Assembly (NCBI GenBank): GCA_007376385.1
Contig: VMGC01000001.1
Location: 256,001 to 320,000 of the forward strand
Direction: 5' to 3'
DNA from: Parcubacteria group bacterium Gr01-1014_8
GTDB lineage: Bacteria > Patescibacteriota > Minisyncoccia > Phycocordibacterales > UBA2100
Length of the DNA: 64,000 bases
Shown: one piece after another, positions 19,192 to 57,970 of the stretch
Position numbering within the stretch: the stretch's first letter is position 1
Layout of the letters: every line of letters begins with the position of its first letter
Program-made: the position numbers and the translations under genes
The notes under the pieces: model-generated
The model's input: the letters and a program-made list of their open reading frames with translations, nothing else
Database searches by the model: none
Told to the model about the DNA's origin: nothing

Positions 19192-20820
19192 ATGCACGTC
19201 GATCAGAATAATCCGGACCGTCGTGTCACCTATTTTGCGTCCACCCATACGCGCGGCCAGCGCGAGCTTTTTGGCATTCGTGGGGAGGATCGAGGCAAGC
19301 ATATATACCTCATTGGAAAGACCGGTATGGGCAAGTCGACCCTGATGGAGAATATGGCAATTCAGGACATACAGAATGGCGAGGGCATCTGTTTTATCGA
19401 CCCGCACGGAGCAACAGCAGAAAAACTTCTCGACTTTGTACCCTACGAGCGCATCAAGGATGTCGTGTATTTTGCGCCATTTGATACCGATTACCCGTTC
19501 GGCTTTAACGTGATGGAGGACGTAGGGTATGACAAACGCCATCTTGTCGTTTCAGGACTCATCGGTGCGTTCAAGCGTATCTGGGTAGATATGTGGAGTG
19601 CTCGGATGGAATACATCCTCCAGAATACTCTCCTTGCACTTCTTGAATACCCCGACGCAACGCTCCTCGACGTGAATCGGATGCTCTCGAACAAAGAATT
19701 TCGGAAAGCGGTGATCGAGAAGATCTCGGACCCTATCGTCAAAACATTCTGGAAAGAAGAATTTGCGACCTACACCGACCGTTATACGCAAGAGGCGACG
19801 CCCGCGATACAAAACAAGGTCGGTCAATTCACTGCGAACCCGTTGGTGCGCAATATTGTGGGACAGCCAAAATCATCATTTGACCTGCGAAAGATGATGG
19901 ATGAGAAAAAGATATTCATTATCAACCTCTCGAAAGGAAGAATGGGCGAGTCGAACGCGTCGCTTCTGGGCAGCATGCTTACGGTAAAGATCTATCTCGC
20001 TGCCATGTCGCGCGCAGACGAACCCGCCTCGCGTCTCGCACAATTGCCGCGCGTCTATTTCTATGTTGATGAGTTCCAATCGATGATGAATGAGGCTTTT
20101 GCCGACATCCTTTCCGAGTCGCGAAAATATAAACTTGCGCTCACTCTCGCGAACCAATACATCGAACAGATGGAAGAAAATGTGCGTAACGCGGTTTTTG
20201 GCAACGTGGGAACGTTGATAGCGTTCCGTGTCGGCCCGTTTGACGCGGAAGTGTTAAAGACGATTTTCGAGCCGACATTCACGCCAGAGGATCTTGTGGG
20301 ATTAGGCGTTGGCCACATCTATTTGACGCTCATGATAGATGGAGTCGGTTCACAGCCTTTTTCTGCGGAGACGATACCTCCCATAGACTTGCCTTCTGTC
20401 TCGTATCGGCAAGATGTCGTGCATTATTCGCGGGCAACATACGGGCGTCCTCGGGCGGAAATGGAGACGCTTGTATTGAAGCGGCAGGAGGATTTTGCGC
20501 CGCTTTCCAAACAGGACAGGAAGAAGGCGCAAGCGGCAAAAAGGCCGGATGAGGCGGAGATGCCACATAGAGAGGAGGGTTCGAGTGCGGATCGCGCCGC
20601 CTTGCGTGCGGCATTAAGTGCGGCCAAGACAGAGGCGCCGAACATGAATGGCAAGACGCCAATTGAGATCCTTCGCGCACGCAAGGCGGCGAAGGAAGCG
20701 CGCTCATCGCACGGCGCTGATGCACAATCGCCTCCAAAGGCGGCGCAGCAGGAACAGCGAGAAGGAGAAATATCACCGGAAGTGCTGCAAAGGATCCTTC
20801 GCGGCAACGATCCAGTATGA
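19192..20820 (+). CDS. Soluble TraD/VirD4/HerA-like P-loop ATPase (type IV secretion DNA-binding-domain family)
   Basis: Walker A LIGKTGMGKST, FIDPHGA, Walker B VYFYVDEFQ, sensor TLANQ; no TM helices; Lys/Ala-rich disordered C-terminus; 542 aa. Confidence 0.75.
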   Translation: MHVDQNNPDRRVTYFASTHTRGQRELFGIRGEDRGKHIYLIGKTGMGKSTLMENMAIQDIQNGEGICFIDPHGATAEKLLDFVPYERIKDVVYFAPFDTDYPFGFNVMEDVGYDKRHLVVSGLIGAFKRIWVDMWSARMEYILQNTLLALLEYPDATLLDVNRMLSNKEFRKAVIEKISDPIVKTFWKEEFATYTDRYTQEATPAIQNKVGQFTANPLVRNIVGQPKSSFDLRKMMDEKKIFIINLSKGRMGESNASLLGSMLTVKIYLAAMSRADEPASRLAQLPRVYFYVDEFQSMMNEAFADILSESRKYKLALTLANQYIEQMEENVRNAVFGNVGTLIAFRVGPFDAEVLKTIFEPTFTPEDLVGLGVGHIYLTLMIDGVGSQPFSAETIPPIDLPSVSYRQDVVHYSRATYGRPRAEMETLVLKRQEDFAPLSKQDRKKAQAAKRPDEAEMPHREEGSSADRAALRAALSAAKTEAPNMNGKTPIEILRARKAAKEARSSHGADAQSPPKAAQQEQREGEISPEVLQRILRGNDPV

Positions 20821-21764
20821 TTCCGCAGAGAACTCTGTTGTTATCAATAGCAGCGTTGTTTGTTCCGGGTGCTGTGTCCGCGCAAGTCGTCATTACCGAA
20901 TTGATGTACGACCTTTCTGAGGGCTCTGATACAGGGCGCGAATGGATAGAAGTATGGAATAGCGGAACAGAGCCCATAGAGCTTACAAACTGGAAGTTGT
21001 TAGAAGCGAATACGAACCATGGCATAAACGCAGTAGGAACTGAAACGCTGGCCCCCGGCGAGTATGCAGTTATCGCTGACAATCCGGCAAAATTTAAAAA
21101 CGATTGGCCTTCTTTTTCGGGAATATTATTTGATTCTTCTTTTTCTCTGAATAATGCCGGTGAACAGTTGATTCTGCGTTGCTGTGGAAAAGAGCTAAGC
21201 GATAAGGATTCGGTGACGTATTCGAGCGAGTGGGGAGGTGCGGGAGACGGCGCGTCGCTCGCGAAAAGCGGTTCATCGTTCATTGCGGCGCAGCCTTCGC
21301 CGGGCTCGGGCTCAGTTGTTGCATTTGCTGTTCCTGAACCTGAATTGCGGTCAGAACCGCCACCTCAACAAAAAGCAGTACAGCAAGAAATTGCAAAGAA
21401 ATCGGAACCGGACAATAAAGAGAGTCCCGCACAAGATCCGAGCGCGGATGTTGCTTCGCAAGTTACAACAGCTCCATCTGTGCAAAAACAAGATGAGGCT
21501 CCAAAAAAGATAGCAAAGAAAACCACCCCTTCTGCTCAAAAAGACCCCGTGCAGAATTCTGAAGAGGAGGTCATTGTTGAGGCCACCGATACAAAGGGCG
21601 TAATAAGCGATAGCAATCAGGCCGCTGCGGTAGCGAGCACGGAAACGAATAACGTGATGTGGTGGGGAGGAGCAGTCACGCTTACAGCCCTCGGGGCAGG
21701 GGCAGTAGTCTTTCTACAGCGAAGCAGAAAAAAGGAATGGGATATTGTTGAGGAAAAAGAGTAG
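20817..21764 (+). CDS. Secreted lamin-tail-domain (LTD) protein with C-terminal transmembrane anchor
   Basis: Signal peptide MIPQRTLLLSIAALFVPGAVSA, LTD signature VVITELMYDLSEGSDTGREWIEVWNSGTEPIELTNWKL, long acidic/Pro-rich low-complexity region, C-terminal TM WWGGAVTLTALGAGAVVFL then RSRKKE; ATGA overlap with the upstream ATPase gene. Confidence 0.75.
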   Translation: MIPQRTLLLSIAALFVPGAVSAQVVITELMYDLSEGSDTGREWIEVWNSGTEPIELTNWKLLEANTNHGINAVGTETLAPGEYAVIADNPAKFKNDWPSFSGILFDSSFSLNNAGEQLILRCCGKELSDKDSVTYSSEWGGAGDGASLAKSGSSFIAAQPSPGSGSVVAFAVPEPELRSEPPPQQKAVQQEIAKKSEPDNKESPAQDPSADVASQVTTAPSVQKQDEAPKKIAKKTTPSAQKDPVQNSEEEVIVEATDTKGVISDSNQAAAVASTETNNVMWWGGAVTLTALGAGAVVFLQRSRKKEWDIVEEKE

Positions 21765-21908: not shown

Positions 21909-22784
21909 ATGGAAATGCGAAATACAGAGAGGAAAACGATCCTCGTTACGGGAGGCGCGGGATTTGTCGGCTCGCATTTGTGCCGTAGGCTTGTGAGAGA
22001 TGGTCACAAAGTCATTTCGCTCGACAACTACTTCACTGGCTCGAAAGAAAATCATGTCGAGGGCGTTGAGTATCGAGAAGGACACACGAAGGATATCGAG
22101 GAGCACGTTACAGAAACACCCGACCTCATCTATCATCTCGGCGAATATTCCCGTGTTGAGATAAGTTTGAATGAGCCTGCGCTCGTGTGGGATCTGAACA
22201 AAGCCGGCACCTTCGGCGTTCTTGAGTTTTGGCGCAAGAAAGGCTGCAAGCTGGTGTATGCAGGCTCGTCGACGAAATTCGGCGACGGCGGGATGGGTCG
22301 CGACCAAAGTCCGTATGCATGGACGAAGGCGTCGAATACTGAACTTACAAGAAACTACGGTGCTTGGTACAAGCTGCCGTATGCCATCACATATTTCTAC
22401 AATGTGTATGGCCCCGGAGAGAGGGCGGGGGCGTATGGAACTCTTATCGAGATATTCAGACAAAAATTCTTGAAGAAAGAACCATTGACCGTGGTTGCAC
22501 CGGGAACGCAAAAAAGGAACTTCACGTATATCGACGATATTATCGAGGGATTAGTCCTGGTCGGCGAAAAAGGAGAAGGAGATGATTTTGGGCTTGGCGA
22601 TGTGCGGGAATATTCGGTGCTTGAGATCGCAAAGATGTTCGGCGGCCCTGTCGAAATGCTCCCGACCAGGGCCGGGAATCGCATGAGCTCTTCTGTTGAT
22701 ACGTCAAAAGCATCAGCCATCGGATGGAGCGTCAAGCACAGCGTCGAGGACTACATCAAGAACATTATCTCTGCGGGAACATGA
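21909..22784 (+). CDS. UDP-glucuronate decarboxylase-like NAD-dependent epimerase/dehydratase (UXS family)
   Basis: KTILVTGGAGFVGSHLCRRLVRDGHKVISLDNYFTGSKENH; catalytic YxxxK in an SDR extended fold. Confidence 0.8.
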   Translation: MEMRNTERKTILVTGGAGFVGSHLCRRLVRDGHKVISLDNYFTGSKENHVEGVEYREGHTKDIEEHVTETPDLIYHLGEYSRVEISLNEPALVWDLNKAGTFGVLEFWRKKGCKLVYAGSSTKFGDGGMGRDQSPYAWTKASNTELTRNYGAWYKLPYAITYFYNVYGPGERAGAYGTLIEIFRQKFLKKEPLTVVAPGTQKRNFTYIDDIIEGLVLVGEKGEGDDFGLGDVREYSVLEIAKMFGGPVEMLPTRAGNRMSSSVDTSKASAIGWSVKHSVEDYIKNIISAGT

Positions 22785-22825: not shown

Positions 22826-24094
22826 ATGGAGAAAGAAAATGAAGCTCATTCCTCTGAATCGAAGGGTATATCTCATGGGGTGAAGCGCGTTTTAATTTTC
22901 TCCCTAGGATATTTTCCGAATGCCGTCGGGGGCGCAGAAGTCGCTATCAAAGAGATAACGCAGCGCATTCCAGATATCGAGTTCCACATGGTGACGAATC
23001 GCTACGATTCGACACTGCCGAAGGTAGAGAAAATCGGCAGCATACTCGTACACCGCATCGGCATCAGTTCGAAGAGGCCTTCGATAGCTGATCTGCGCCG
23101 GTGGCCGCTGCACCTCAACAAATTTTTGTATCAATTTCTTGCAGCGTGGAAAGCGATCAAGCTCCATCGAACATATAAGTACGATGCACTGTGGGCGATG
23201 ATGGCGCATTCATGCGGCGTGCCAGCCGCGATATTCAAAATGAGGAATATGGATGTGCCCTACGTGCTAACGCTCCAAGAAGGTGATCCGCCTGCCTATA
23301 TTGAGAGAAAGATGTGGCTTCTGTGGCCCTTCTTCAAACGAGCGTTTACCTCGGCCGATATCGTTCAGGCGATCTCGACGTTTCTTGGAAAATGGGCGAC
23401 GCACCGCGGCTTCAAAGGACCCTTGGAAATAATTCCAAATGCAGTTGATATTCAGCATTTTTCCGAAGAACCGCCGCTGTATTTGGTGAATGAAATAAAA
23501 GATGGACTCAGTAAGAGAATGGGGGACGTATTTGTGATAACAACGTCGCGTTTGGTACATAAGAATGCCGTGGACGATGTCATTCGAGCGCTTCCGAAAC
23601 TCCAAGAGAATGTGAAGTTCATTATTCTCGGCGTCGGACCGGACGAAGCTAAACTAAAAAAACTGGCGAAAGATCTGAATGTCGCGAAGCGGGTTCAATT
23701 TGTGGGGCAAGTGAGCCATGCCGATTTGCCTAAATATTTGAAGGCGTGCGATATTTTTATCCGTCCGTCGCGCTCTGAAGGCATGGGCAACTCCTTTGTT
23801 GAAGCGATGGCGGTGGGGCTACCGGTCGTCGCAACACAAGAAGGCGGCATTGCCGATTTTCTATTCGACGAGCGTAGGGATCCCGATAAGCCAGTGACGG
23901 GGTGGGCAGTGGACAAGGATTCGCCGGAACAAATAGTGCTTACGATAAAGGAGATCATCTCGCGGCCGGAAAAAGTGCGCGCGGTAGTCGCGACGGCGCG
24001 GGAGACGGTGAAAGAGAAGTATGATTGGGATATTATCGCGGGCGATATGTGGGAGAAAGTGTTTGCGAGATTGTTTGAAGTTCGCTCGAAATGA
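22826..24094 (+). CDS. Glycosyltransferase family 4 (GT-B, group 1)
   Basis: C-terminal RPSRSEGMGNSFVEAMAVGLPVVATQEGGIADF GT4 motif. Confidence 0.8.
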   Translation: MEKENEAHSSESKGISHGVKRVLIFSLGYFPNAVGGAEVAIKEITQRIPDIEFHMVTNRYDSTLPKVEKIGSILVHRIGISSKRPSIADLRRWPLHLNKFLYQFLAAWKAIKLHRTYKYDALWAMMAHSCGVPAAIFKMRNMDVPYVLTLQEGDPPAYIERKMWLLWPFFKRAFTSADIVQAISTFLGKWATHRGFKGPLEIIPNAVDIQHFSEEPPLYLVNEIKDGLSKRMGDVFVITTSRLVHKNAVDDVIRALPKLQENVKFIILGVGPDEAKLKKLAKDLNVAKRVQFVGQVSHADLPKYLKACDIFIRPSRSEGMGNSFVEAMAVGLPVVATQEGGIADFLFDERRDPDKPVTGWAVDKDSPEQIVLTIKEIISRPEKVRAVVATARETVKEKYDWDIIAGDMWEKVFARLFEVRSK

Positions 24095-24363: not shown

Positions 24364-25503
24364 ATGCGCATTCTTATCGCGACAGGAATTTTTGAACCTG
24401 AAGCGGGCGGGCCAGCGACATACACGCCCAAAATAGCGGCAAAACTGGTCCAAGCGGGCAATGAAGTTACAGTTATTACTTATTCTGATAAGAAAAAACA
24501 CGATCTTGACTCAAGATATCCCTTTCGGTTGATACGAGTCGTTCGAGGAAAATACAAGCTCGCGAATTATTATTCTTTCTTTCGAGCAGTCTCGCCGGAA
24601 TTGGTTGGAGTAGATGTCACGTATAGCCTGGATTGGATAGCTGCGGGCCTCCCTCTCACTCTTGCAGCGATGATAAAGAATATCCCTGTCGTCATCCGCG
24701 TGGGCGGGGATTACATTTGGGAAAAATATCTGCAGTCCGGCGGGTCTCCGATGCCTCTTGCCGAGTTCAATGAACGCGGCCTGTATAAACATCAAAGAAT
24801 ACTTTTTTGGATAATTATCGTCGTATTGAGGCGCGCGTTCGTCGTGTTCAACAGCGATGCGGAGCGGGATATGTACCGCCGCTTGTATGGTCTACGAGAG
24901 GAGAGGACCGGCGTCATACACAATCCTATGCCGGAGAAGGGTTGGCTAGGAGTTGTGCGTGAGAAACCGAACAATGAACTGGTGTTTGCGGGGCGATTCA
25001 TAGCGATGAAAAACATCACGTCGCTCCTTGCGGCATATGCGACGGCGCGCACTCCATTTCGTCTTGTGCTGATGGGAGAAGGTCCGGAAGAACAGAGGAT
25101 ACGAGGGGCTATCAAAGCGCTAAAGCTCGAAGAAAAGGTATCTATATATCCGCCCATGAGGCAGCAAGAACTTTTTGAAAGGATAAAGAATTCTCGTGCG
25201 CTTGTGTTGCCGAGCTGGACTGATATTGCCCCGAACCAAGTCAGTGAAGCCATCGCGCTCGGCATTCCGATCCTTGTTACCAAAGAGAATTTTCTCGTCT
25301 TTAGAGACCAATTGCCAGACATGCTCGACCCGGCATCCGTCGAAGACATCCGCCAAAAACTGGAAATGCTTGCTGACGAGATGAGGTACCAGAGTTTTGC
25401 CGAGAAGTGCCGTCGCATTGAATTTAAGAATAGTTGGGACGATGTCGTTACGAAGCATCTTGGTGTTTTTGGGCACGTACTTTCGAAGGGCACGCGTCAT
25501 TGA
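24364..25503 (+). CDS. Glycosyltransferase family 4
   Basis: MRILIATGIFEPEAGGPATY N-terminus and GT-B C-terminal domain. Confidence 0.8.
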   Translation: MRILIATGIFEPEAGGPATYTPKIAAKLVQAGNEVTVITYSDKKKHDLDSRYPFRLIRVVRGKYKLANYYSFFRAVSPELVGVDVTYSLDWIAAGLPLTLAAMIKNIPVVIRVGGDYIWEKYLQSGGSPMPLAEFNERGLYKHQRILFWIIIVVLRRAFVVFNSDAERDMYRRLYGLREERTGVIHNPMPEKGWLGVVREKPNNELVFAGRFIAMKNITSLLAAYATARTPFRLVLMGEGPEEQRIRGAIKALKLEEKVSIYPPMRQQELFERIKNSRALVLPSWTDIAPNQVSEAIALGIPILVTKENFLVFRDQLPDMLDPASVEDIRQKLEMLADEMRYQSFAEKCRRIEFKNSWDDVVTKHLGVFGHVLSKGTRH

Positions 25504-25542: not shown

Positions 25543-27513
25543 ATGCGCATCTTAAGTATTTCCAGTGATTGGAACGTCTTTAGTGAAGACAGTGCCGTCG
25601 CGAGACGCCAGCGTCTGCAGGCTTCAACCGTAGAGCGGTTCGATGTGTTCATGCCGCATGGGCCCGACGAGACCATTCATATCGCAGGAAACGGGACCAT
25701 GCGCGGGTTTGGTCCCGGCAAATTGCGAGGCATGTTTCGCATGTTATGGTCCGCATTCAGGATGCAAAGACCGGATATCGTTTCTTCACAAGACCCATTC
25801 TTTCTAGGACTTCTTGCCTGGAAGATCGCAAAAGTGCGGGGAGCAAAACTGCATATACAGATACACACCGATCTTTTTGACCCGCATTTTGCAGCGCATT
25901 CTTTCACCAATCGAATTCGATTGCTGCTCGCGCGTTTCGTTCTCTCGCAAGCAGATTGCGTTCGCGTCGTGTCGGAGCGCATTAAGCGCTCATTGGATAA
26001 ATTGCATCTTCGTGTCCCGGTTTCTGTTCTTCCGGTTTTTATTGATGCGGAGGTCATTGACGCGGCGCAACCTTTGCAGAAACGCAGCGTATATCCCGAT
26101 TTCGAGAAAATAATTCTAGTCGTCAGCAGACTCGAGCCGGAAAAGAATGTTACTGCCGCCCTTCGCGCTCTGCCGGACATATTGAAAGCGCAGCCGGGCA
26201 CCGGGCTCGTCATCGTCGGCGATGGCTCTTTGCGCGAGCAGCTCGAACGTCTTGCGAAAGAGCTCGGCATTGAGAAACGCGTTGCTTTTGCAGGCTCTAC
26301 AAAGCCATATCCATACTACAAAGCTTCAGATCTATTACTTTCGACCTCTGATTACGAAGGATATGGGATGGTGGTGGTAGAAGCGCTCTATGCAGGATGT
26401 CCTGTCATCTCGTTCGATACTGGCGTCGCTCGCGAAGCAGGTGCCATAATCGTGACTCCAGAGGTTCTTGCGAGCACTGCGGCTGCCACGTTATCAGAAG
26501 GCCGCCGTGGGAAACTCGCTTTTACTTTGCCGAGCGAACAGGAATATCGTGACCTATGGCACTCACAGATCGCGCTTACGCTGGCACTGAAGAGTTCTGC
26601 CTCCGCGCCAAAAGCGGCATCGAGAAAGGCGTTGAAAATAGGTTTTATCGGGCAAGGCTTCATCGGCAAGAATTACGCGGATGACCTCGAGCGACGCGGT
26701 ATCTCGGTCACACGGTATGCTCTCGAAGAACCGTATCGGCAAAATAAAGACAAGATAAAAGATCGCAACATCGTTTTCATTGCCGTTCCAACACCGACCA
26801 CACCGAAAGGGTTCGACTATTCGATTGTGCGAGAGGCTGTCGGTCTTGTCGGGAAGGGAAGTGTTGCCGTCATCAAATCCACGCTTGCCCCGGGCACGAC
26901 AGAAAAGATACAGAAAGAATTCCCGGGCGTCATCGTGATGCACTCTCCCGAATTTCTGCGGGAAGCAACGGCGGCGTTTGATGCTGCGAGACCGGATAGG
27001 AATGTCATCGGGCTTGCCATCGATTCGCCCGAGAACAGAGAGCGTGCAAAGGACGTTCTTTCCATTCTGCCGTCTGCTCCGTTCGAGCTCATTTCAACGT
27101 CGAGAGAAGCGGAACTTATTAAGTACGCGGGGAATGCGTGGCTGTATATGAAAGTCGTATACGCGAATATGCTGTACGACCTTTCAGAGCGTTTGCATAT
27201 CAATTATCAAAGCGTGCGAGAGGGTCTTGCCGCGGACCCGCGCGTTGGAAGGTCGCACCTAGATCCGATCCACGCCAGCGGGCATCCTGGAGCTAATCCG
27301 GGTCGTGGGGCGGGAGGTCACTGTTTCATCAAAGATTTTGCCGCACTTCGCATGGAGTATGAGCAAGCTTTGCCGGATGATACTGCCGGAATCGCAGCCT
27401 TCCGTAAACTCGAGGAGAAAAATGTGCAGCTGCTTCTTGAGAGCGACAAAGACCTCGAACTCCTGCGCGGTGTATACGGAGATGAACTAGAGAATTTCCG
27501 AAGGAAGAAATAA
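25543..27513 (+). CDS. Fusion protein: N-terminal GT4 glycosyltransferase plus C-terminal NDP-sugar dehydrogenase (UDP-glucose/GDP-mannose dehydrogenase family)-like domain
   Basis: Residues ~1-340 are GT4-like (EGYGMVVVEALYAGCPVISF). From KIGFIGQGFIGKNYA the C-terminal part is UDPGDH-like: IVFIAVPTPT, VIKSTLAPGTT, MHSPEFLREATAAFD. Confidence 0.7.
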   Translation: MRILSISSDWNVFSEDSAVARRQRLQASTVERFDVFMPHGPDETIHIAGNGTMRGFGPGKLRGMFRMLWSAFRMQRPDIVSSQDPFFLGLLAWKIAKVRGAKLHIQIHTDLFDPHFAAHSFTNRIRLLLARFVLSQADCVRVVSERIKRSLDKLHLRVPVSVLPVFIDAEVIDAAQPLQKRSVYPDFEKIILVVSRLEPEKNVTAALRALPDILKAQPGTGLVIVGDGSLREQLERLAKELGIEKRVAFAGSTKPYPYYKASDLLLSTSDYEGYGMVVVEALYAGCPVISFDTGVAREAGAIIVTPEVLASTAAATLSEGRRGKLAFTLPSEQEYRDLWHSQIALTLALKSSASAPKAASRKALKIGFIGQGFIGKNYADDLERRGISVTRYALEEPYRQNKDKIKDRNIVFIAVPTPTTPKGFDYSIVREAVGLVGKGSVAVIKSTLAPGTTEKIQKEFPGVIVMHSPEFLREATAAFDAARPDRNVIGLAIDSPENRERAKDVLSILPSAPFELISTSREAELIKYAGNAWLYMKVVYANMLYDLSERLHINYQSVREGLAADPRVGRSHLDPIHASGHPGANPGRGAGGHCFIKDFAALRMEYEQALPDDTAGIAAFRKLEEKNVQLLLESDKDLELLRGVYGDELENFRRKK

Positions 27514-27517
27514 GTAC

Positions 27518-28669
27518 TTGCCCCGTGAGATAACTCACTCAGCGATGAATTCTAAATCTAGTATGAGTCATGATACGTCGAATGAGGAGGGAATGCGGAC
27601 CGGACTATCTCATGGGGTAAACCTACTCGTATGCGCGCAGACGGTAGATATTAAAGATCCGTTCAATGGCTTTTTTGTCGAATGGCTCCGAGAAATGTCG
27701 AGTCATTTTTCCAGCGTCCACGTCATCAGCCTCTCTGCCGGCGAATATTATCTTCCTTCAAATGTCCGAGTTCTCTCTCTTGGAAAGGAATCGGTGAGAG
27801 GTCCGCGCTTTGTCGTACGGTTCCGCTACATCTGGCTCTTACTTCAATACAGCTGGTCTCTGCGCCGTGAATACGATTCAGTGTTCGTGCATCAAAGTCA
27901 GGAGTTTATATTAAGCGCAGGATTTCTGTGGGCGCTTCTTCGAAAGCCTGTGTACCTGTGGCGCAATCACTATGCAGGAAATATCCTCACCGATATCGCC
28001 GCATACTTTTCGCGAAAGGTTTTCTATACCTCACATTTTTCCTATACCGCAAAATACAAGCATTCGGTTGCCATGCCTGTCGGTGTCGATGTTGAACAAT
28101 TCGCCCCAGGAGGGGATGTTGAGCGTAGAGCGCGTTCTATTCTTTTCCTTGGTCGCATCACACCTTCCAAGCGTCCGCATATGTTGCTTGAAGCGTTGTC
28201 GATAGTGCAGAAAAAGTCGATTTCTTTCAAAGCATCTCTCTACGGCTCATACCTTCCTTCCGATAGTACATATCGCGAGGAGCTTATTCAGAAAGTGAAT
28301 ACATCTGCTTTGAAAGACAGTGTCACATTTCATGAGGGGATACCGCACAAAGATGTGCCGCGTGTTTTCAATCAGTTCGAGCTGTACGTGAATCTTGCGC
28401 AAAGCGGGATGCTCGATAAGACGATATTTGAAGCCGCGGCATGCGGCGCGGTTCCGTTAACTGCGAGCAAGGACTATGCAGACATGGCAGGGGAACAATT
28501 TCTTTTTGAGAATGCAGAGGACCTCGCGAAGAAACTTGAACAATTCTTGGGAATGCCAGAAAACAAAAAAGACGAACTTCGTTCGCGCATTCGCGCTCTT
28601 GTCGTGCAAAAACACTCGCTCAAAGAATTGGGTCGTCTGCTCTCTGTTCAGATGGTTGCGTTGAATTGA
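27518..28669 (+). CDS. Glycosyltransferase family 4
   Basis: GT-B group 1 architecture; EAAACGAVPLTASKDYADMAG C-terminal motif. Confidence 0.75.
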   Translation: MPREITHSAMNSKSSMSHDTSNEEGMRTGLSHGVNLLVCAQTVDIKDPFNGFFVEWLREMSSHFSSVHVISLSAGEYYLPSNVRVLSLGKESVRGPRFVVRFRYIWLLLQYSWSLRREYDSVFVHQSQEFILSAGFLWALLRKPVYLWRNHYAGNILTDIAAYFSRKVFYTSHFSYTAKYKHSVAMPVGVDVEQFAPGGDVERRARSILFLGRITPSKRPHMLLEALSIVQKKSISFKASLYGSYLPSDSTYREELIQKVNTSALKDSVTFHEGIPHKDVPRVFNQFELYVNLAQSGMLDKTIFEAAACGAVPLTASKDYADMAGEQFLFENAEDLAKKLEQFLGMPENKKDELRSRIRALVVQKHSLKELGRLLSVQMVALN

Positions 28670-30992: not shown

Positions 30993-31721
30993 ATGACGAA
31001 GATTCTGGTTACGGGTGGTTCCGGTCTGCTCGGCGGACATATTCTCGCCCTCGAGTCTTCGCTCATTTCGCCATCTCATTCGGAGATGGATATCACTGAT
31101 AAGGCGAGCGTCGAAATGGCTTTTGATAAATATCAGCCTGATACAGTGCTTCATCTTGCCGCCGCGACGAAGCCCCCAGAACATGAGAAAACACCCGCGA
31201 TCGGTATTGAGAACAACATCATAGGGACAGCGAATGTCGCGCTCGCGGCACTGAAAAGAAACGTCCGAATGGTCTACACCTCAACCGACTACTTATATAG
31301 CGGGAAAGGACCGCATACAGAGAACGAGCCTATGCTCCCGCCGTATAAATTTGCGTGGTCAAAGCTTGGAGGAGAATCTTGTGTTGCGCTTTTGCCAAAC
31401 AGTTTGATCCTTCGTCTGTCGTTCGGTCCTAGGCCTTTTCCATGGGAGAAAGTGTACAAAGACCAATTGAATTCGAAATTGTATGTGGATGAGATAGCGC
31501 CGCTCGTGCTTGCTCTAGCTCAAGGCAGTGAAGTGGGTATTATGAACGTCGGCGGTCCCCGAAATACGCTCGAGGAATATGCGCGGCGTACCAAGCCCAA
31601 TATCGAAACGATTGAAAAGCCTGAATGGGTGCCAGCGGATACGAGCCTCGATATTTCACGTATGTGCGATGTTCTCGGCATTACAGATGCGCACACGCTT
31701 TTGAAACATTACATACTATGA
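30993..31721 (+). CDS. dTDP-4-dehydrorhamnose reductase-like (RmlD family)
   Basis: MTKILVTGGSGLLGGHI…; short SDR of RmlD type, 242 aa. Confidence 0.7.
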   Translation: MTKILVTGGSGLLGGHILALESSLISPSHSEMDITDKASVEMAFDKYQPDTVLHLAAATKPPEHEKTPAIGIENNIIGTANVALAALKRNVRMVYTSTDYLYSGKGPHTENEPMLPPYKFAWSKLGGESCVALLPNSLILRLSFGPRPFPWEKVYKDQLNSKLYVDEIAPLVLALAQGSEVGIMNVGGPRNTLEEYARRTKPNIETIEKPEWVPADTSLDISRMCDVLGITDAHTLLKHYIL

Positions 31722-32164
31722 TAGATGGCGTACACATAAAAAATATAGTTCGGCACAACGACGAGCGCGGCTATTTTGCGGAGCTGATGAAAAAAGGGGA
31801 GCCGGGTTACCACGAGATAGCGCAGACAAGTTACGCTCTGACACTGCCAGGAGTTATCAAAGCATTCCACTTTCATGATTACTCTGAAACGTGGGTCGTT
31901 GTTCGAGGGAGCGCGCAAATTGTTATGTACGATGGAAGGGAAAACTCCAAGACTAAGGGAGAGACACAGGTCATCGAAGCGGGGGAAGAAAACCCTATCG
32001 TGCTTTCCATTCCTCCTCGAGTTGCACACGGATACCGCGTGAGGGGAGATGAACCCGTTGGGATGCTCTATCATGCGGGGGAGGCGTATGATGCGGGGCG
32101 GAAGGACCAGATAGGCACTATTCCGTTTAACTCGCCGGATATTAATTTCGATTGGAATTCATAA
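31718..32164 (+). CDS. dTDP-4-dehydrorhamnose 3,5-epimerase-like cupin (RmlC family)
   Basis: Start trimmed to MIDGVHIKNIVRHNDERGYFAEL (ATGA overlap with upstream gene); conserved …FHFHD…VVVRGSAQIVMYDGRE… jelly-roll motifs. Confidence 0.75.
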   Translation: MIDGVHIKNIVRHNDERGYFAELMKKGEPGYHEIAQTSYALTLPGVIKAFHFHDYSETWVVVRGSAQIVMYDGRENSKTKGETQVIEAGEENPIVLSIPPRVAHGYRVRGDEPVGMLYHAGEAYDAGRKDQIGTIPFNSPDINFDWNS

Positions 32165-37454: not shown

Positions 37455-38581
37455 ACATTGTATACATCACAAGTGCGCGTATACCGTCAGAACGGGCCTA
37501 TGGCTATGCCATCACCAAACTCTGCGAAGAGTGGGGGAAGGCGGGGCATGATGTGAGGTTGATATTGCCGGAGAGGGAACATGGTCTGCAAGATGACCTG
37601 TTCGAATACTACAAACTCGAGAGGACATTCACCATAGAAAAGATTTCGGCAAGTGACTGGATTGGAAAAAGTCTGTCGACATCGCGCGTTCACTTTGCCC
37701 TCGATCTTCTTGCGTTCGTGATCTCGTTGCGAACAGTACGATTTGATGCGGACACAGCCATCTACACCCGTGAATATCTGCTTGCGCTCACACTTCCGGC
37801 ACGGAATCTTTTTTTGGAAGTGCACACGGTACACAGCAAAGGTTTTTTGTTTCGCCGTGCATTAGGACGGGTGCGCGGGATCGTTGCGATAAGTGAGGGC
37901 GTGAAAAAGGAACTGGTCGCTCTTGGTGTCGCAGAAGAAAAAATTAAGGTTGCTCATGACGGGGTCGATCTGGATCCATTTGCACAGGCTCCGGCGGACA
38001 GAAGCGTCTGGAGGCAGTTTGGTGTCGAGCCGTCACAAAATGTTGTGTTATACGCCGGTCATTTTTACGAGTGGAAAGGAGCCGATACCTTGGCGGTCGC
38101 TGGAAAAATGCTCCCATCTGATGTGCACACGGTCCTAGTAGGAGGTGTAGATAACGAGCTGCGCGACTTTAGAGAGAAATATGCCGCTTCAAATGTGCAC
38201 ATCGCGCCGCATCGATCACGCGCAACGATACCTGTCTTACTGAAAAGCGCGGATGTGCTCGTTCTTCCGAACAGCGCAAAGGCGGAAATCTCGCGCTCAC
38301 ACGCCTCGCCGCTGAAGCTGTTCGAATACATGGCCGCGGGCGTCGCAATTGTTGCGTCCGATGTGCCTAGTCTGCGTGAAGTACTTTCTGAGGATACAGC
38401 TTTTTTCTTTAAGGCCGATGACTCGAATAGTCTCGCGGAGGTTATCGGCCGCGTGCTCAAATTGCCGGACGACGCACATTCCAGAGCTGAACAGGCAAAG
38501 AAAAAGGCGGACACATACACATGGCGTGGTCGCGCTGCCGACATCGCACAATTTCTCGACAGACTGGGGAGCAAGGGATAG
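37451..38581 (+). CDS. Glycosyltransferase family 4
   Basis: MNIVYITSARIPSERAYGYAI… N-terminus, ASPLKLFEYMAAGVAIVASDVPSLREV C-terminal GT4 motif. Confidence 0.8.
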   Translation: MNIVYITSARIPSERAYGYAITKLCEEWGKAGHDVRLILPEREHGLQDDLFEYYKLERTFTIEKISASDWIGKSLSTSRVHFALDLLAFVISLRTVRFDADTAIYTREYLLALTLPARNLFLEVHTVHSKGFLFRRALGRVRGIVAISEGVKKELVALGVAEEKIKVAHDGVDLDPFAQAPADRSVWRQFGVEPSQNVVLYAGHFYEWKGADTLAVAGKMLPSDVHTVLVGGVDNELRDFREKYAASNVHIAPHRSRATIPVLLKSADVLVLPNSAKAEISRSHASPLKLFEYMAAGVAIVASDVPSLREVLSEDTAFFFKADDSNSLAEVIGRVLKLPDDAHSRAEQAKKKADTYTWRGRAADIAQFLDRLGSKG

Positions 38582-38591
38582 CATAGACTTT

Positions 38592-40403
38592 ATGCGGTTT
38601 TTTAGGCGCCTCGGGAATATGTTCCGCCTGCTTCGGCGGGCATATGGTGCATATTCGACGCAAATAGCGGCGCTTGCTGCCCTGGGCTTTTTGGGCGGAT
38701 TGCTTGAAGGCATCGGCATCAATGCGGTTGTCCCGCTTCTGACATTCATTTTTACGGAGTCCGCGCAGGCGTTTGACCCGATCTCGAATATTCTGCGGTC
38801 AGTGTTCACATTCATCGGCATTGATTTCGCCCCCAAATATTTGCTCGCGTTCATCGTGATCATGTTCCTTGCGCGCGCTGCGGTGATGTACGCGCTCTCG
38901 TATATTCAGACGGTCATATCATTCAACTATGAGCGAGATACGCGAGTACGCGTGTTCGAAACCCTCCTGCGTTCTTCGTGGTCGCATCATCTGGCAAGGA
39001 AATTCGGACATCTGGAGACTATCATCATGATAGACGCTCCGGCGAGCACGAATCTTCTCCGCAAGTTGAGCAATCTCATCACGCTCGCGACGGGGCTCAT
39101 AATGTATCTCATTGTGGCGTTCAATATTTCTCCTGCCGTTACATTTCTGACGTTCGCCGTCGGTGTATGCGGGCTCCTTTTCTTCAGATACTTTTTGACG
39201 ATGATTCACGCGAGAAGTTCGGAGCGTGTCGCGCTCAACAAAGAAGTCGCCCACTACATGGGGGAATACGCGGCGGGCGCGAAGGCGATAAAGGCATCCG
39301 GCACTGAGGAGGTTGTCGCGGAAAGCGGTGTGGATCTTTTTTCCCGTTTAAGGAATATTTCTGTAAGCATATCCCTTGTACAGCAGGTAGCCGTACTCAT
39401 TATTCCGCCGGCCGGGATTCTATATATCGCGCTCATATTCGGTGTTGCGTACCGTACTGATTTCATCCAGCTTGCCGCGCTTCCCGCTATTATTTACCTC
39501 ATTTACCGCATCTCGCTGTACGCTCAGCAAGGGCAGGACCACCTGCAGGGTATTCAGGAACTCGTCCCTCATTTGCAGAGCGTGCTCGCGTTCGAGGAGA
39601 AATCGCGACAGAAAGAAGAGCACATCGGCGGAGATAAATTATTCGCCTTCCACAAGGAACTTCGATTTGACGATGTTCATTTTTCCTACGACGACGGTCG
39701 CGAAGCGCTAAAAGGCGTGTCATTTACTGTTAAGGGGCGCTCAACGGTTGGTATTGTCGGTCCTTCCGGTGCAGGGAAGACGACATCGGTCGATTTGATG
39801 CTGAGGCTCTTGGAGCCGACGAACGGGGCGATCACACTCGATGGTGTAAATGTGCGCGATATTTCACTGCAATCATGGCGCGCAAAAACGGGGTATGTAC
39901 CACAAGAACCGTTCCTGTTGCACGATACGATACGGAACAACGTTCTTTTTCAATTTAAAGGAAACGGAGGACAAGACGCGCTTTCCGATGCAGATGTGTG
40001 GCACTTTCTCAAGATGGCGGATGCGGAAGATTTTGTTCGCGCGATGCCGGAGGGGCTCGATTCAATGGTCGGGGACAGAGGCGTAACACTTTCAGCAGGG
40101 CAGAGACAAAGGCTCGTCATTGCGCGTGAGCTTGCTCGAAAGCCGGAACTCCTCATTCTCGACGAGGCGACGAGCGCGCTCGATAGTGAATCAGAGGCGC
40201 GTTTGCAGAAGGTCATCCAGAAACTCAAGGGTTCGGTTACTATCGTCATTATTGCCCATCGTCTCTCGACTATCTTGGAGTCGGATAAGCTTGTTGTTCT
40301 AAAAGAAGGCACGGTAGCTGAGCCAATAGCCAGCCCTGAAGCGATGCTTCGTACCGCCGGCTCGTATTTAAGCCACATTTTCTCGCTGAATAAATCACTA
40401 TGA
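38592..40403 (+). CDS. ABC transporter, fused permease/ATP-binding protein (MsbA/PglK-like exporter, likely glycolipid or lipid-linked glycan flippase)
   Basis: Start trimmed to MRFFRRLGNMF… (just after the upstream GT4 stop); 6 TM region then GPSGAGKTT Walker A, LSAGQRQRLVIAREL signature, ILDEATSALD Walker B. Confidence 0.85.
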   Translation: MRFFRRLGNMFRLLRRAYGAYSTQIAALAALGFLGGLLEGIGINAVVPLLTFIFTESAQAFDPISNILRSVFTFIGIDFAPKYLLAFIVIMFLARAAVMYALSYIQTVISFNYERDTRVRVFETLLRSSWSHHLARKFGHLETIIMIDAPASTNLLRKLSNLITLATGLIMYLIVAFNISPAVTFLTFAVGVCGLLFFRYFLTMIHARSSERVALNKEVAHYMGEYAAGAKAIKASGTEEVVAESGVDLFSRLRNISVSISLVQQVAVLIIPPAGILYIALIFGVAYRTDFIQLAALPAIIYLIYRISLYAQQGQDHLQGIQELVPHLQSVLAFEEKSRQKEEHIGGDKLFAFHKELRFDDVHFSYDDGREALKGVSFTVKGRSTVGIVGPSGAGKTTSVDLMLRLLEPTNGAITLDGVNVRDISLQSWRAKTGYVPQEPFLLHDTIRNNVLFQFKGNGGQDALSDADVWHFLKMADAEDFVRAMPEGLDSMVGDRGVTLSAGQRQRLVIARELARKPELLILDEATSALDSESEARLQKVIQKLKGSVTIVIIAHRLSTILESDKLVVLKEGTVAEPIASPEAMLRTAGSYLSHIFSLNKSL

Positions 40404-41128
40404 AAAAGAGGATAGCTATCATTCAGGCGAGAATGAATTCCTCTAGAATGCCCGGGAAAATTCTGAAGGAGATCTCGGGAAAACCGGCGCTGTGGCATCT
40501 CATAGAGAATATCCGACCCTCGAAACAGCTCACCGATATTATCGTCGCGACCACAATGAATACGGCGGATGACGTGATAGCCGATTTTACGAAGGAGAAT
40601 GCTGTCACCTGTTTCCGCGGAAGCGAGGAAAACGTACTAGAGCGATTTTATGAGGCAGCGAAGTCTATCGGTGTCAAGGATTCTGACATCATCGTACGAA
40701 TTACCGCCGATGATATATTCATGGATCCGTATATCATTGATGCGCTCGTCACTTTTTTTGATTCCACGTATCCATACTATAGATTGGTGTCCAATAGCTT
40801 CAAGCCGGGTTTTCCGTATGGTCTTTATTTCGAGCTATTTGATTTCGCTTCTCTGAAAGATGCTTATCGTAATGCGACCACGGAATCCCAAAAAGAGCAT
40901 GTGACGCCGTACATCCGCGAACACGAGGAAACATTTCCTGCTATAGCAATCGAATCAAAAGGAGTCGATCTTTCGGATGTGTATCTTTCGATTGATACAG
41001 TGGAGGACCTCGAGCGAAATCGCCGCATCATCGAGCGGTTGGAGTCGCAGAATAAAAAACATCCGTATCTCTTTACAGATGTAGTCACCGCATATAAGGA
41101 TTTAAAATTGAGCAGGGCATCTGTATGA
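40400..41128 (+). CDS. Acylneuraminate (CMP-nonulosonate) cytidylyltransferase family protein (SpsF/NeuA/LegF-like)
   Basis: IAIIQARMNSSRMPGKILKEISGKPALWHLIENI N-terminal cytidylyltransferase motif; 242 aa. Confidence 0.8.
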   Translation: MKKRIAIIQARMNSSRMPGKILKEISGKPALWHLIENIRPSKQLTDIIVATTMNTADDVIADFTKENAVTCFRGSEENVLERFYEAAKSIGVKDSDIIVRITADDIFMDPYIIDALVTFFDSTYPYYRLVSNSFKPGFPYGLYFELFDFASLKDAYRNATTESQKEHVTPYIREHEETFPAIAIESKGVDLSDVYLSIDTVEDLERNRRIIERLESQNKKHPYLFTDVVTAYKDLKLSRASV

Positions 41129-42183
41129 GCCCCATTAAAAATAACTCGCCCAAGCCCTCCGGGCGCGCTAGCGCGGGCGCTATTTCTAACGGGGCGAGAA
41201 TTGGCGTTGTGGGAAACGGTTCGATGGGGAGGCGGAGAATAAAACATTCTCAGATGTATGGATATACAGACATCACGGGTTGGGATATTAGGTCGGACAG
41301 GCGAAAGGAGGTCGAATCAAAGTTCGGAATACAAACGGTGAAGAGTCAGAAGGATTTTGAGAACTCAAAGTTCGATGCGCTATTCATTTGTGTGCCTCCG
41401 GCCGAACACTATTACTACATGAAGCTTGCGGTGAAGAACGGTTGGAATTTTATGGTGGAGAATCCAGTGTGGCATAAGGTGAAGGGACTCGATGTGCTTC
41501 AAAGGGAAGTGAAGAAGAAAAAACTGGTGGCGAACGTCAGTTGCAACGTCAGGTTCCTGAAAGCGACGCAGAGGATAAAGCAGCTTGTTCGAGATGATGT
41601 CATTGGACCGATATTGTCGGGCGTAGCCGAAGTCGGCGAATATTTGCCTGATTGGCATCCGTACGAACCGTATACCGATTACTATCCGTCCAAAAAAGAA
41701 ATGGGCGGCGGTATCGACGCGATGTGTGATCTCGACTGGCTTGTCGATATTTTCGGCGATATCCGCAGGATGAACTGTGTGTATTCGAAAAAGTCGAGCC
41801 TAAAAATCAATACCTATGACATCATTGATTTCATTCTAGAGTTCAAGTTAGGACCGCAGATAGTTCTGCATACCGACATGCTTCAATCGCCGTACGGCAG
41901 AGCGGTGAAGCTCATAAGTGAGCGCGGTGTTATCGTGTGGGAATACAAAGAACAGATAGTAAAATATTATGATCGTCGAACCAAGAAGTGGACAAAGTTC
42001 GACGAATCGGGTTCGAGAGTTAATTTCGACAATAACATCACGACGACATGGGCTGAGCAGATGTATATGGACGATTCATTTCACTTCTTCAAGTGTCTGA
42101 AAGGCGAGGCGAAGCCGCTTAACACTATAGAAAGCAATTCGAAACTTCTGAAACAGCTTCTCAAAGCCATCGACTACGCCTGA
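41125..42183 (+). CDS. Gfo/Idh/MocA-like NAD(P)-dependent oxidoreductase (PtmF-like)
   Basis: N-terminal Rossmann ARIGVVGNGSMGRRRIKH and Gfo/Idh/MocA-like layout; 352 aa. Confidence 0.55.
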   Translation: MSPIKNNSPKPSGRASAGAISNGARIGVVGNGSMGRRRIKHSQMYGYTDITGWDIRSDRRKEVESKFGIQTVKSQKDFENSKFDALFICVPPAEHYYYMKLAVKNGWNFMVENPVWHKVKGLDVLQREVKKKKLVANVSCNVRFLKATQRIKQLVRDDVIGPILSGVAEVGEYLPDWHPYEPYTDYYPSKKEMGGGIDAMCDLDWLVDIFGDIRRMNCVYSKKSSLKINTYDIIDFILEFKLGPQIVLHTDMLQSPYGRAVKLISERGVIVWEYKEQIVKYYDRRTKKWTKFDESGSRVNFDNNITTTWAEQMYMDDSFHFFKCLKGEAKPLNTIESNSKLLKQLLKAIDYA

Positions 42184-57963: not shown

Positions 57964-57970
57964 TGTTTGT

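Follow-up and report, generated by a model that had tools for sequence, protein, structure and literature searches.

Enzymes of the UDP-glucose dehydrogenase (UGDH) family contain three domains, of which the C-terminal one keeps the UMP moiety of the substrate in place, and share an active site of six conserved residues, namely Thr, Glu, Lys, Asn, a Cys nucleophile and Asp (PMC3129169). In the window described here (the whole stretch of 64,000 nucleotides that was analysed), one open reading frame (ORF) joins a GT4 glycosyltransferase (GT) to a UGDH-like dehydrogenase from which this UDP-binding domain is absent. Among enzymes of related pathways, ArnA consists of a formyltransferase and a UDP-GlcA decarboxylase, and WbpO/WbpP and TviB/TviC are dehydrogenase-epimerase pairs. 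We know of no covalent dehydrogenase-glycosyltransferase fusion that has been characterised, and a literature search found no description of either the two-domain UGDH-like family considered below or a GT4-dehydrogenase fusion.

Architecture of the GT4-dehydrogenase protein

The ORF (Table 1) starts with ATG, contains no internal stops and encodes a protein that is a 100% match to one deposited Parcubacteria MAG protein. A first-pass annotation had described it as a complete GT4 unit followed by a UGDH-like N-terminal and central region, a description confirmed by the Pfam domains, and the peptides that it quoted (IVFIAVPTPT, VIKSTLAPGTT and SPEFLREAT) are all found in the ORF.

Table 1. Positions in the window of the fusion ORF, its parts and its operon partners
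Feature	Position	Strand	Basis or remark
Whole fusion ORF (GT4 - linker - short UGDH-like dehydrogenase)	25543..27513	+	656 aa, stop codon included
GT4 (GT-B, retaining) half, residues 1-349	25543..26589	+	Pfam, Foldseek, pLDDT mostly >85
GT4 E-x7-E motif (E272...E280)	26356..26382	+	Conservation, 73 family members
Linker, variable and disordered, residues ~350-362 (~13 residues)	26590..26628	+	pLDDT, split relatives
NAD-binding Rossmann domain, residues ~363-519	26629..27099	+	PF03721; without ~32 residues of canonical insertion after beta2
GxGxxG dinucleotide-binding motif (G370-Q-G-F-I-G375)	26650..26667	+	G370, G372 and G375 invariant
Central all-helical (dimerisation/active-site) domain, residues ~520-610	27100..27372	+	PF00984; K527 and N531 invariant
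Catalytic loop G-R588-G-A-G-G-H-C594-F-I-K597-D598	27301..27336	+	Alignment to GGSCFPKD of solved UGDHs
Conserved helical C-terminal tail, KN..LL..S.KD.DLL..VYG	27373..27510	+	Family-specific, stands where the UDP-binding domain would be
Extended SDR, operon partner	21909..22784	+	291 aa; syntenic in relatives
GT4, operon partner	22826..24094	+	422 aa; kept in operon type A, most of 80 loci
GT4, operon partner	24364..25503	+	379 aa; locus comparison
GT, operon partner	27518..28669	+	383 aa; directly downstream of fusion ORF; only Glycos_transf_1 half recognisable

In the GT4 half, Pfam matches were obtained for Glyco_trans_4_4/Glyco_transf_4 at residues 32-170 and for Glycos_transf_1 at residues 185-298 (1.1e-29), all above the gathering cut-offs (PF13579, 45.9 bits; PF13439, 49.4; PF00534, 103.7; PF13692, 87.6). 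GT4 membership is indicated by the recognition of both Rossmann-like domains by GT4 models. Across 73 family members, E280 is invariant, E272 is conserved in at least 90%, and R196 and K201 are invariant; by analogy with GT4 enzymes in general, the E-x7-E motif and these basic residues are presumably involved in binding the donor (phosphate). The best Foldseek matches were BshA, MshA and PimB', which share the GT-B fold (E ~1e-15, target-normalised TM 0.62-0.71) and the E-x7-E motif but are only 14-21% identical to this half. No equivalog model of NCBIfam reached its cut-off with the GT4 half, the scores being far below.

The GT4-dehydrogenase junction was checked at residues 330-360 and runs in a single reading frame throughout. 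Together with the occurrence of the same architecture in more than 110 independent clusters (90%-identity clustering, 45-80% identity), which a search for the fusion in other genomes recovered, this excludes a sequencing frameshift. In the AF2 model, linker residues 350-359 have a pLDDT below 50, the pTM of the whole fusion protein is 0.58, and an interface between the GT and dehydrogenase (DH) halves is not predicted.

In the dehydrogenase half, UDPG_MGDP_dh_N (PF03721) matches residues 402-495 (1.4e-14, 54.5 bits vs a cut-off of 27), although only over profile positions 71-179 of 187, and the central UDPG_MGDP_dh domain (PF00984) matches residues 521-608 (4.1e-16, above the gathering cut-off). 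R391 after beta2 and E395 four residues further may bear on a preference for NAD or NADP. The catalytic loop holds the nucleophile Cys594 and Asp598 as well as a family-specific Arg588, and C594 in GGHCFIKD aligns with GGSCFPKD of 4a7p; across the family, C594, K597 and D598 are constant, and R588 is kept in at least 90% of members. The full UGDH catalytic set of six (T447, E470, K527, N531, C594 and D598) shows no variation among 73 fusion proteins and next to none among 59 diverse members of the short family. The arginine of a DPR(I/V)G motif is conserved in short dehydrogenases as well; in UGDH structures, the diphosphate of the substrate is contacted by this arginine of the neighbouring subunit.

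The C-terminal UDP-binding domain is missing, which leaves the dehydrogenase half with about 295 aa where canonical enzymes have about 390-450. PF03720 was not found in the fusion protein by Pfam even at E<=1, and hhalign of the short family against canonical UGDH covered only canonical residues 2-294 of 438, with no counterpart of the short-family tail past residue 294. This bears out the earlier remark that the dehydrogenase part is short (~300 vs ~400 aa). In the tail, N627, L630, L631, K636, D637, V644, Y645 and G646 are invariant among the 73 fusion proteins. The half scored 123.9 bits on TIGR03026, under the cut-off of 189.8, and the dehydrogenase module alone was predicted as a compact fold (pLDDT 93.5, pTM 0.89).

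Alignment with UgdH thus located the catalytic Cys (C594) that had been looked for, whereas the C-terminal UDP-binding domain is absent. The first-pass annotation had considered a truncated or binding-only domain, and had named a lack of the catalytic Cys and the UDP-binding domain as the sign of a degenerate remnant. Loss of the domain has no such meaning here: the catalytic set is invariant, the predicted fold is compact, and a large family normally consists of the short module as a protein of its own, so the half is not a remnant. It is best explained, from conservation and predicted structure, as a putative catalytically competent short UGDH-like dehydrogenase.

The short UGDH-like family and its operons

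Members of the short family have about 280 aa and two domains (NAD-binding and central), with the UDP-binding domain absent. A contig scan with the family alignment detected the family in at least 536 species-representative genomes, nearly all titled Patescibacteria. Automatic annotations of its members read "hypothetical", "NAD(P)-binding domain-containing protein" or "glycosyltransferase". Among 80 species surveyed over ±10 kb around each match, the short dehydrogenase is stand-alone in 63, fused to GT4 in 13 and fused to a UDP-hexose 4-epimerase in 4. The same GT4 and dehydrogenase are neighbouring separate genes in 24 species, with a stop codon, a gap of 3-354 nt and a start codon at the position of the linker, which corresponds to the former intergenic spacer. 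GT4-fused dehydrogenases form one clade, with 65-93% identity to each other, and this monophyly points to a single lineage-specific fusion of operon neighbours. The fusion unites genes that are adjacent but separate in most relatives, a point going beyond the first-pass annotation.

All identified fusion partners of the short dehydrogenase (GT4, GT2, SDR, ATP-grasp and APS kinase) are binders of nucleotides or nucleotide sugars, and both orders, GT4-DH and DH-GT4, occur. Among the top 150 relatives, 17 multidomain or longer proteins were found by Pfam to lack PF03720, the canonical tandem P0266 excepted. A search for a hidden divergent UDP-binding domain in the longer relatives (P0261, P0235 and P0134 among others) gave no PF03720 match; the tail of P0261 is of low complexity. 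P0111 is a natural tandem. The C-terminal membrane half of P0133, considered as a GT-C, gave no Pfam match.

The gene 3.6 kb upstream of the fusion ORF had been taken for a UXS-like UDP-glucuronate decarboxylase, an assignment that is unconfirmed. Its PDB matches tie (GalE 4zrm, 4.3e-30, vs UXS1 2b69, 4.6e-30), leaving no clear UXS best match, and the protein reads AGSSTKFGD and YAWTK, with S-T-K where UXS and ArnA have T-S-E; the Thr/Glu motif of the decarboxylases (T-S-E-V-Y-G) is absent. By motif and matches it is only a generic extended SDR. Orthologs with 59-71% identity were found at the equivalent position in two related loci (L001 and L003), and the gene sits in the slot that is filled by a true UXS in four related operons (L036, L061, L062 and L065), so that it may act on UDP-GlcA.

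Elsewhere, stand-alone short dehydrogenases adjoin authentic UXS and WbpP-type 4-epimerases, authentic UXS being the most specific recurrent neighbour. In L007 (stand-alone dehydrogenase P0282), the true UXS (9470-10402) matches human UXS1 at 2.4e-116 and has the motifs ASTSEVYG/YDEGK; in L008 (P0311), the value is 6.8e-80 and the motifs are ASSSDVYG/YEEGK. In operon type B, the dehydrogenase is encoded by the first gene; next come a 4-epimerase, either fused to it or encoded separately, and an authentic UXS. Dehydrogenases of operon types A and B are interleaved and equally similar. Rosetta-stone evidence on the order of steps comes from the GT4-DH, DH-epimerase and UXS-GT4 fusions.

Proposed function and its alternatives

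What was observed directly is the architecture, the catalytic conservation, the autonomy and spread of the short module, and the genes linked to it (UXS, 4-epimerases and GTs). As to function, we consider it fairly probable that the protein is a bifunctional, lineage-specific fusion in which the short dehydrogenase makes an NDP-uronic acid, most probably UDP-GlcA, for the GT4 and the GTs of the operon. Among the alternatives of the first-pass annotation, this favours synthesis of a uronic acid by the dehydrogenase for transfer by the GT joined to it. Fusion of two adjoining operon genes would have given rise to the bifunctional GT4-dehydrogenase. Most likely, the dehydrogenase converts an NDP-hexose to the uronic acid at C6 by the NAD+-dependent four-electron oxidation of the alcohol that is usual for its class, which would pass via a thiohemiacetal/thioester on Cys594. 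UXS and 4-epimerases as neighbours and fusion partners suggest UDP-glucose as the most probable substrate, with UDP-glucuronate as the product. The uronate or a derivative may then be used by the GT4 half, the three neighbouring GTs and the operon SDR, with putative transfer by the fused GT, and the end product would be a uronic-acid-containing surface glycoconjugate. The fusion may also allow channelling between its two halves. Candidate features that may hold the nucleotide are Arg588, the arginine of DPR(I/V)G, the loop inserted ahead of the Cys and the conserved tail. A milder reading, overlapping with this explanation, would regard the short dehydrogenase as the first NDP-sugar 6-dehydrogenase to bind its nucleotide without a dedicated domain and as the sole UDP-GlcA source of a bacterial radiation.

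The same chemistry could serve another nucleotide sugar: UDP-GlcNAc or UDP-GalNAc, as in the 6-dehydrogenases WbpO/TviB, or dTDP-glucose, as in CalS8. This is unlikely: authentic UXS, the most specific recurrent neighbour, needs UDP-GlcA, and the best sequence matches are UDP-glucose dehydrogenases. Rather doubtful, too, is oxidation of the hexose C6 once a GT has attached the hexose to a lipid or glycan acceptor. Without its UDP-binding domain, the enzyme would have an active site open to such a bulky non-nucleotide substrate, and uronic acid formation after glycosyl transfer would be a new reaction for the UGDH superfamily. However, the type B dehydrogenase precedes, or is joined to, enzymes whose only substrates are UDP-sugars (4-epimerase and authentic UXS), the type A and B dehydrogenases are interleaved, and the arginine presumed to contact the diphosphate is conserved; to our knowledge, C6 oxidation at the polymer or lipid level has no precedent in the superfamily.

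Little credence is given to a short module that has no activity by itself and depends on a nucleotide-binding domain borrowed from another protein or protein half. In the fusion ORF, the lender would be the C-terminal Rossmann domain of GT4; in other members, it would be an SDR, a GT2 or some other protein that binds nucleotides, either fused to the module or encoded next to it. The nature of the fusion partners is in keeping with such borrowing, as is the near-constant adjacency of the module to genes for nucleotide-binding proteins. However, most modules are stand-alone (63/80), their neighbours vary with no universal partner, GT4 precedes the dehydrogenase in some fusions and follows it in others, and the model of the isolated dehydrogenase is closed and confident. 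Docking of the GT4 C-domain in the place of the lost UDP-binding domain likewise found no support, in view of the disordered linker, the pTM of 0.58, the lack of a predicted interface and the stand-alone state of most relatives. A decaying remnant, a mis-joined neighbour gene or another assembly or frameshift artefact, to which the missing C-terminal domain and the sub-threshold TIGR03026 score might point, has a negligible chance of being correct and is refuted by the more than 110 independent clusters with the same fusion, the monophyly and mutual identity of the fused forms, and the invariant catalytic residues and family-specific tail.

With synthesis of an NDP-uronic acid by the short dehydrogenase as the preferred reading, a group of ultra-small bacteria at phylum scale appears to run UDP-uronic-acid pathways (UXS, 4-epimerase and many GTs) with a dehydrogenase of ~280 aa. 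Confirmation of the activity would define the minimal catalytic core of the UGDH class and a new mode of holding the nucleotide, would correct the automatic annotations of the short family, and would offer a first handle on the glycan operon of 5-6 genes that is conserved in Parcubacteria; the surface glycoconjugates of these bacteria are probably important in their episymbiotic way of life.

Comparison with known enzymes

How does the short dehydrogenase compare with described enzymes? Beta-hydroxyacid dehydrogenases (HIBADH/tartronate semialdehyde reductase, ~290 aa) are close in size, but are only 13-20% identical, and their structural similarity ranks behind that of UGDH. Their NAD_binding_2 domain (PF03446) scored 15.1 bits, short of its cut-off of 21, and matched no more than residues 365-396. 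HIBADH performs a single hydride transfer, whereas the UGDH-type active site of the dehydrogenase half (Cys/Lys/Asn/Asp) implies a four-electron oxidation via a thioester. In canonical UGDH/Ugd/HasB (PF03721+PF00984+PF03720, TIGR03026), the UDP-binding Rossmann domain that is absent here extends from canonical residue ~295 to the end, and the N-domain has an insertion, ~32 residues of which are missing from the short family. The fusion ORF, in turn, has an 8-residue insertion in the pre-Cys loop, which reads G-R-G-A-G-G-H-C instead of the canonical G-x-G-[FY]-G-G-S-C, and the conserved C-terminal tail is a feature of the short family, not of canonical UGDH.

Short phage proteins named "UDP-glucose dehydrogenases" (Campylobacter phage F379, 256 aa; Microbacterium phage Fireman, 262 aa; BFVD) have the size of two domains and a fold like that of the dehydrogenase half (Foldseek E 1e-11 to 4e-17, TMt 0.68-0.76), but are 20-23% identical, uncharacterised and not fused to a GT. 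ArnA, WbpO/WbpP and TviB/TviC resemble the present protein in that successive steps of UDP-uronic-acid metabolism are physically coupled; they differ in that the dehydrogenase coupled here is one without a UDP-binding domain, and its fusion partner is a glycosyltransferase.

Architecture and integrity of the fusion protein

The 656-aa ORF, proposed in the first-pass annotation to be a GT4-dehydrogenase fusion, runs in a single frame from an ATG start with zero internal stops, and the peptides quoted there are present in its translation. The product is a 100% match to a deposited 'Parcubacteria group bacterium Gr01-1014_8' protein labelled UDPglucose 6-dehydrogenase. Above the Pfam gathering cut-offs, it contains a complete GT4 unit (residues 32-314; PF13579, PF13439, PF00534 with E = 1.1e-29, and PF13692), and two domains of the UDP-glucose/GDP-mannose dehydrogenase family, NAD-binding (PF03721, residues 402-495) and central (PF00984, residues 521-608). 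The third domain of this family, UDP-binding PF03720, was not matched in the ORF even at E<=1, and the NCBIfam model TIGR03026 was matched at positions 71-278 of 413 only (123.9 bits, below the cut-off of 189.8). The same architecture was found in >110 protein clusters (defined at 90% identity), at 45-80% identity to the query, in Parcubacteria, Kaiserbacteria and Paceibacterota metagenome bins. These clusters and the invariant catalytic residues rule out an artefact or remnant.

In an alignment of 73 fusion proteins, G370, G372 and G375 (GxGxxG), T447, E470, K527, N531, C594 and D598 are invariant. HMMER alignments to solved UGDHs identified the last six as counterparts of the active-site residues Thr131, Glu161, Lys220, Asn224, Cys276 and Asp280 of human UGDH (PMC3129169). 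The GT4 half retains E272 and E280 (E-x7-E motif), R196 and K201 in the same alignment. This conservation shows that purifying selection acts on each half as an enzyme. AlphaFold2, run on the 73-sequence alignment (mean pLDDT 88, pTM 0.58; pLDDT <50 at residues 350-359), predicted both halves to be confidently folded with a flexible linker between them, and no GT4-dehydrogenase interface was predicted in this model. The Foldseek matches of the GT half are BshA, MshA and PimB', all of them retaining GT4 enzymes.

A large family of short dehydrogenases

The relatives of the dehydrogenase half form a large family that exists autonomously. When residues 355-656 were searched exhaustively with phmmer against 1.84 billion representatives, 136 were matched at E<=1e-30, nearly all of them stand-alone proteins of 260-310 aa; among the relatives scanned, PF03720 was found only in one canonical tandem UGDH (E~1e-29). 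A profile search of an annotated database gave 120 stand-alone Patescibacteria proteins (274-336 aa), named at source 'hypothetical protein', 'NAD(P)-binding domain-containing protein' or 'nucleotide sugar dehydrogenase'. When species-representative genomes were scanned for the family peptides GRGAGGHCF and GFIGQG[WF]I, these were found in at least 536; by record label, the best 80 are nearly all Patescibacteria lineages, with a few bins labelled Gammaproteobacteria or similar. The sequences are public under generic and inconsistent labels, and no description of the two-domain family or of the GT4-dehydrogenase fusion was found in the literature.

Further architectures include the dehydrogenase followed by GT4 (reverse order), joined to GT2, to an SDR or to a Ddl-type (D-Ala-D-Ala-ligase-type) ATP-grasp domain, preceded by APS kinase or HTH, followed by a polytopic membrane domain (~385 aa, no Pfam match), and in tandem with both catalytic Cys retained. 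The ATP-grasp, APS kinase, membrane, HTH and tandem forms are represented among the related proteins P0126, P0188, P0133, P0215 and P0111. A second, more divergent copy (47% identity) lies directly upstream of the fusion gene in locus L025, and a WbpP-like SDR separates two copies in L072. Phage proteins of 256-308 aa (BFVD A0A7L8ZKG0, A0A481VXA9, A0A6J5MZQ6), from Campylobacter phage F379, Microbacterium phage Fireman and an uncultured Caudovirales phage, are labelled UDP-glucose dehydrogenase and are of two-domain size like the short dehydrogenases. Dehydrogenases of the domain-less kind may have originated, or have spread, beyond Patescibacteria.

Operon context and origin of the fusion

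ORFs were called in the best 80 of the at least 536 species loci and classed by BLASTP against seed proteins. The dehydrogenase is stand-alone in 63 of the 80, fused to GT4 like the window's in 13 and fused to an SDR in 4. GT4 lies within 3 kb in 68 loci and an extended SDR within 10 kb in 52; a UXS-type SDR lies within 3 kb in 10 and within 10 kb in 14, and a canonical UGDH with its C-domain was found within 10 kb in 0 of the 80. The window's operon type A, [SDR291]-GT4-GT4-GT4fus-DH-GT, recurs among these loci (GT4fus being the GT4 that matches the fused half); in type B, which recurs as well, the dehydrogenase is followed by a 4-epimerase, UXS (or SDR291 in the UXS slot) and two GT4s. SDRs beside stand-alone dehydrogenases were identified by best PDB match against solved structures. 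The SDR299 type, found after the dehydrogenase in L007 and fused to it in L036, L049, L066 and L078, matches WbpP/GalE-class 4-epimerases (1sb8 1.8e-54, 4zrm 2.1e-52). The dehydrogenase module is linked to UDP-uronic-acid enzymes and glycosyltransferases.

Was the upstream SDR291 rightly called UXS-like? Its UXS identity is not demonstrable, since it matches GalE-type 4zrm (4.3e-30) and UXS1 (4.6e-30) equally, all its NCBIfam matches are sub-threshold, and it reads S-T-K at the site of T-S-E in UXS/ArnA. It is a conserved operon member (orthologs 59-71% identical in L001 and L003) and fills the UXS position in L036, L061, L062 and L065, which makes a role on a UDP-uronic acid plausible.

In 24 species, GT4fus and the dehydrogenase are separate genes whose spacing is 3-354 nt (median ~45) and whose relative frame varies. 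When the dehydrogenase modules were placed in a neighbour-joining tree, the fused forms (13 from the loci, plus that of the window) grouped as one clade with 65-93% mutual identity. The fusion thus arose a single time, when two neighbouring genes lost the stop codon and the spacer that separated them. Type-A-split and type-B dehydrogenases are interleaved in the tree, with identity of 0.64 between types vs 0.63 within, so that it is reasonable to extend inferences from UXS-linked dehydrogenases to the fusion protein of the window. Taken by itself, the fusion is an ordinary Rosetta-stone event.

Window synteny (TrwB-like ATPase, LTD protein, SDR291, 1-2 GT4s, fusion, GT) is shared by relatives with 46% and 58% identity. 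Fusions are frequent in Patescibacteria glycan operons: UXS-GT4, SDR291-GT4 and dehydrogenase-4-epimerase (L030, L040, L063, L073, L074; L036, L049, L066, L078), a 1042-aa SDR-SDR-DegT protein and a ~1193-aa protein of PMT_2 with two GT4 units. Elsewhere in the window, the 800-aa ORF has an unusual domain combination. The ABC exporter and Capsule_synth genes are capsule-type export/assembly genes in a Parcubacteria genome, adjoining the GT operon. The RmlD-like ORF overlaps the RmlC-like one by 97 nt, which could reflect truncation, frameshift or a compact fused arrangement. No tRNA or tmRNA genes were found in the 64 kb.

Features of the window and of related species loci (L handles)
Sequence	Position	Strand	Feature	Remarks
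Window	1-64000		Whole window	GC skew positive throughout; large ORFs nearly all on + strand
Window	19192-20820	+	TrwB/TraG-like coupling ATPase	With LTD, directly upstream of glycan operon
Window	20817-21764	+	Lamin-tail-domain (LTD) protein	
Window	21909-22784		SDR291	291-aa extended SDR
Window	25543-27513	+	GT4-dehydrogenase fusion	656 aa
Window	26707-26730		Fusion residues 389-396	R391-Y392 site
Window	30993-31721	+	RmlD-like ORF	242 aa only; profile positions 2-149 of 287
Window	31625-32164	+	RmlC-like cupin ORF	
Window	38349-40403, 42185-43606, 57944-59467	+	ABC exporter and two KpsC/KpsS-like Capsule_synth proteins	
Window	40400-41128		CMP-sugar cytidylyltransferase	Module of 800-aa ORF
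Window	41125-42183		GFO_IDH_MocA oxidoreductase	Module of 800-aa ORF
Window	45626-48028	+	800-aa ORF	N-terminal flavin amine-oxidase/UDP-galactopyranose-mutase-like domain, NeuB (nonulosonic acid synthase), SAF
Window	49875-51221, 52167-53423		Aminotransferases	Module of 800-aa ORF
L001	519-3879		TrwB/TraG-like ATPase and LTD	Syntenic with operon; relatives as distant as 46%
L003	1-2227		TrwB/TraG-like ATPase and LTD	As in L001
L003	14502-17630		Large operon fusion protein	
L006	11361-14855		Large operon fusion protein	
L006	6063-6992		SDR	Adjoins dehydrogenase; WbpP 4.7e-73
L007	9470-10402		SDR	Two genes downstream of dehydrogenase; human UXS1 2.4e-116; ASTSEVYG, YDEGK
L008	7857-9425		SDR	Overlaps dehydrogenase stop codon; UXS1 6.8e-80

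Proposed reaction and comparison with canonical UGDHs

The substrate of the dehydrogenase module would be an NDP-hexose, most probably UDP-Glc, and its oxidation would proceed via a thiohemiacetal/thioester at C594. The resulting uronic acid, its epimer or its decarboxylation product would then be used by the fused GT4 and neighbour GTs, which would build a surface glycoconjugate. Candidates for holding UMP are R588 (>=90% conserved throughout the family), the conserved DPR(I/V)G arginine, the loop insertion and the conserved tail. We take the DPR(I/V)G arginine to be the equivalent of human UGDH Arg260, a residue by which the partner subunit contacts the substrate. A different nucleotide sugar, UDP-HexNAc or dTDP-Glc, is a rival substrate; CalS8 is a structural neighbour of the module, and RmlA and RmlB are encoded in the window. 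As further rivals, the short dehydrogenase would depend on a partner's nucleotide-binding domain, or oxidation would follow glycosyl transfer.

In profile-to-sequence alignment, the short family covers canonical UGDH residues 2-294 of 438 (probability 99.5%), with two gaps behind beta2 of the N-domain that add up to ~32 residues. For the C-terminal Rossmann domain of the canonical enzyme, this alignment shows no counterpart, and a conserved helical tail of ~30-45 residues (KN..LL..S.KD.DLL..VYG) occupies its place. The pre-nucleophile loop reads G-R588-G-A-G-G-H-C594, whereas canonical UGDHs have G-x-G-[F/Y]-G-G-S-C, and an 8-residue insertion precedes it in the window's protein. After beta2, the family has an invariant R391-Y392 and then E395; at this site the Asp of canonical UGDHs (human Asp36; PMC3129169) specifies NAD. 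Either NAD or NADP may therefore be the preferred coenzyme.

The protein is an enzyme of the UGDH superfamily that lacks the nucleotide-binding domain and, in this case, is joined to its operon-neighbour GT4. A phylum-wide, apparently functional UGDH without the domain thought to anchor the substrate would surprise specialists. In structure comparison, the predicted dehydrogenase fold scored 21.7-24.0 (21-31% identity) against NDP-sugar 6-dehydrogenases (2o3j 24.0, 7kws 23.9, 4a7p 22.5, UDP-ManNAc dehydrogenase 4r16 21.9, and CalS8 with TDP-glucose, 4xr9, 21.7), and 18-19.8 (13-20% identity) against ~290-aa two-domain beta-hydroxyacid dehydrogenases. As modelled, the module is a UGDH active site in a HIBADH-like architecture.
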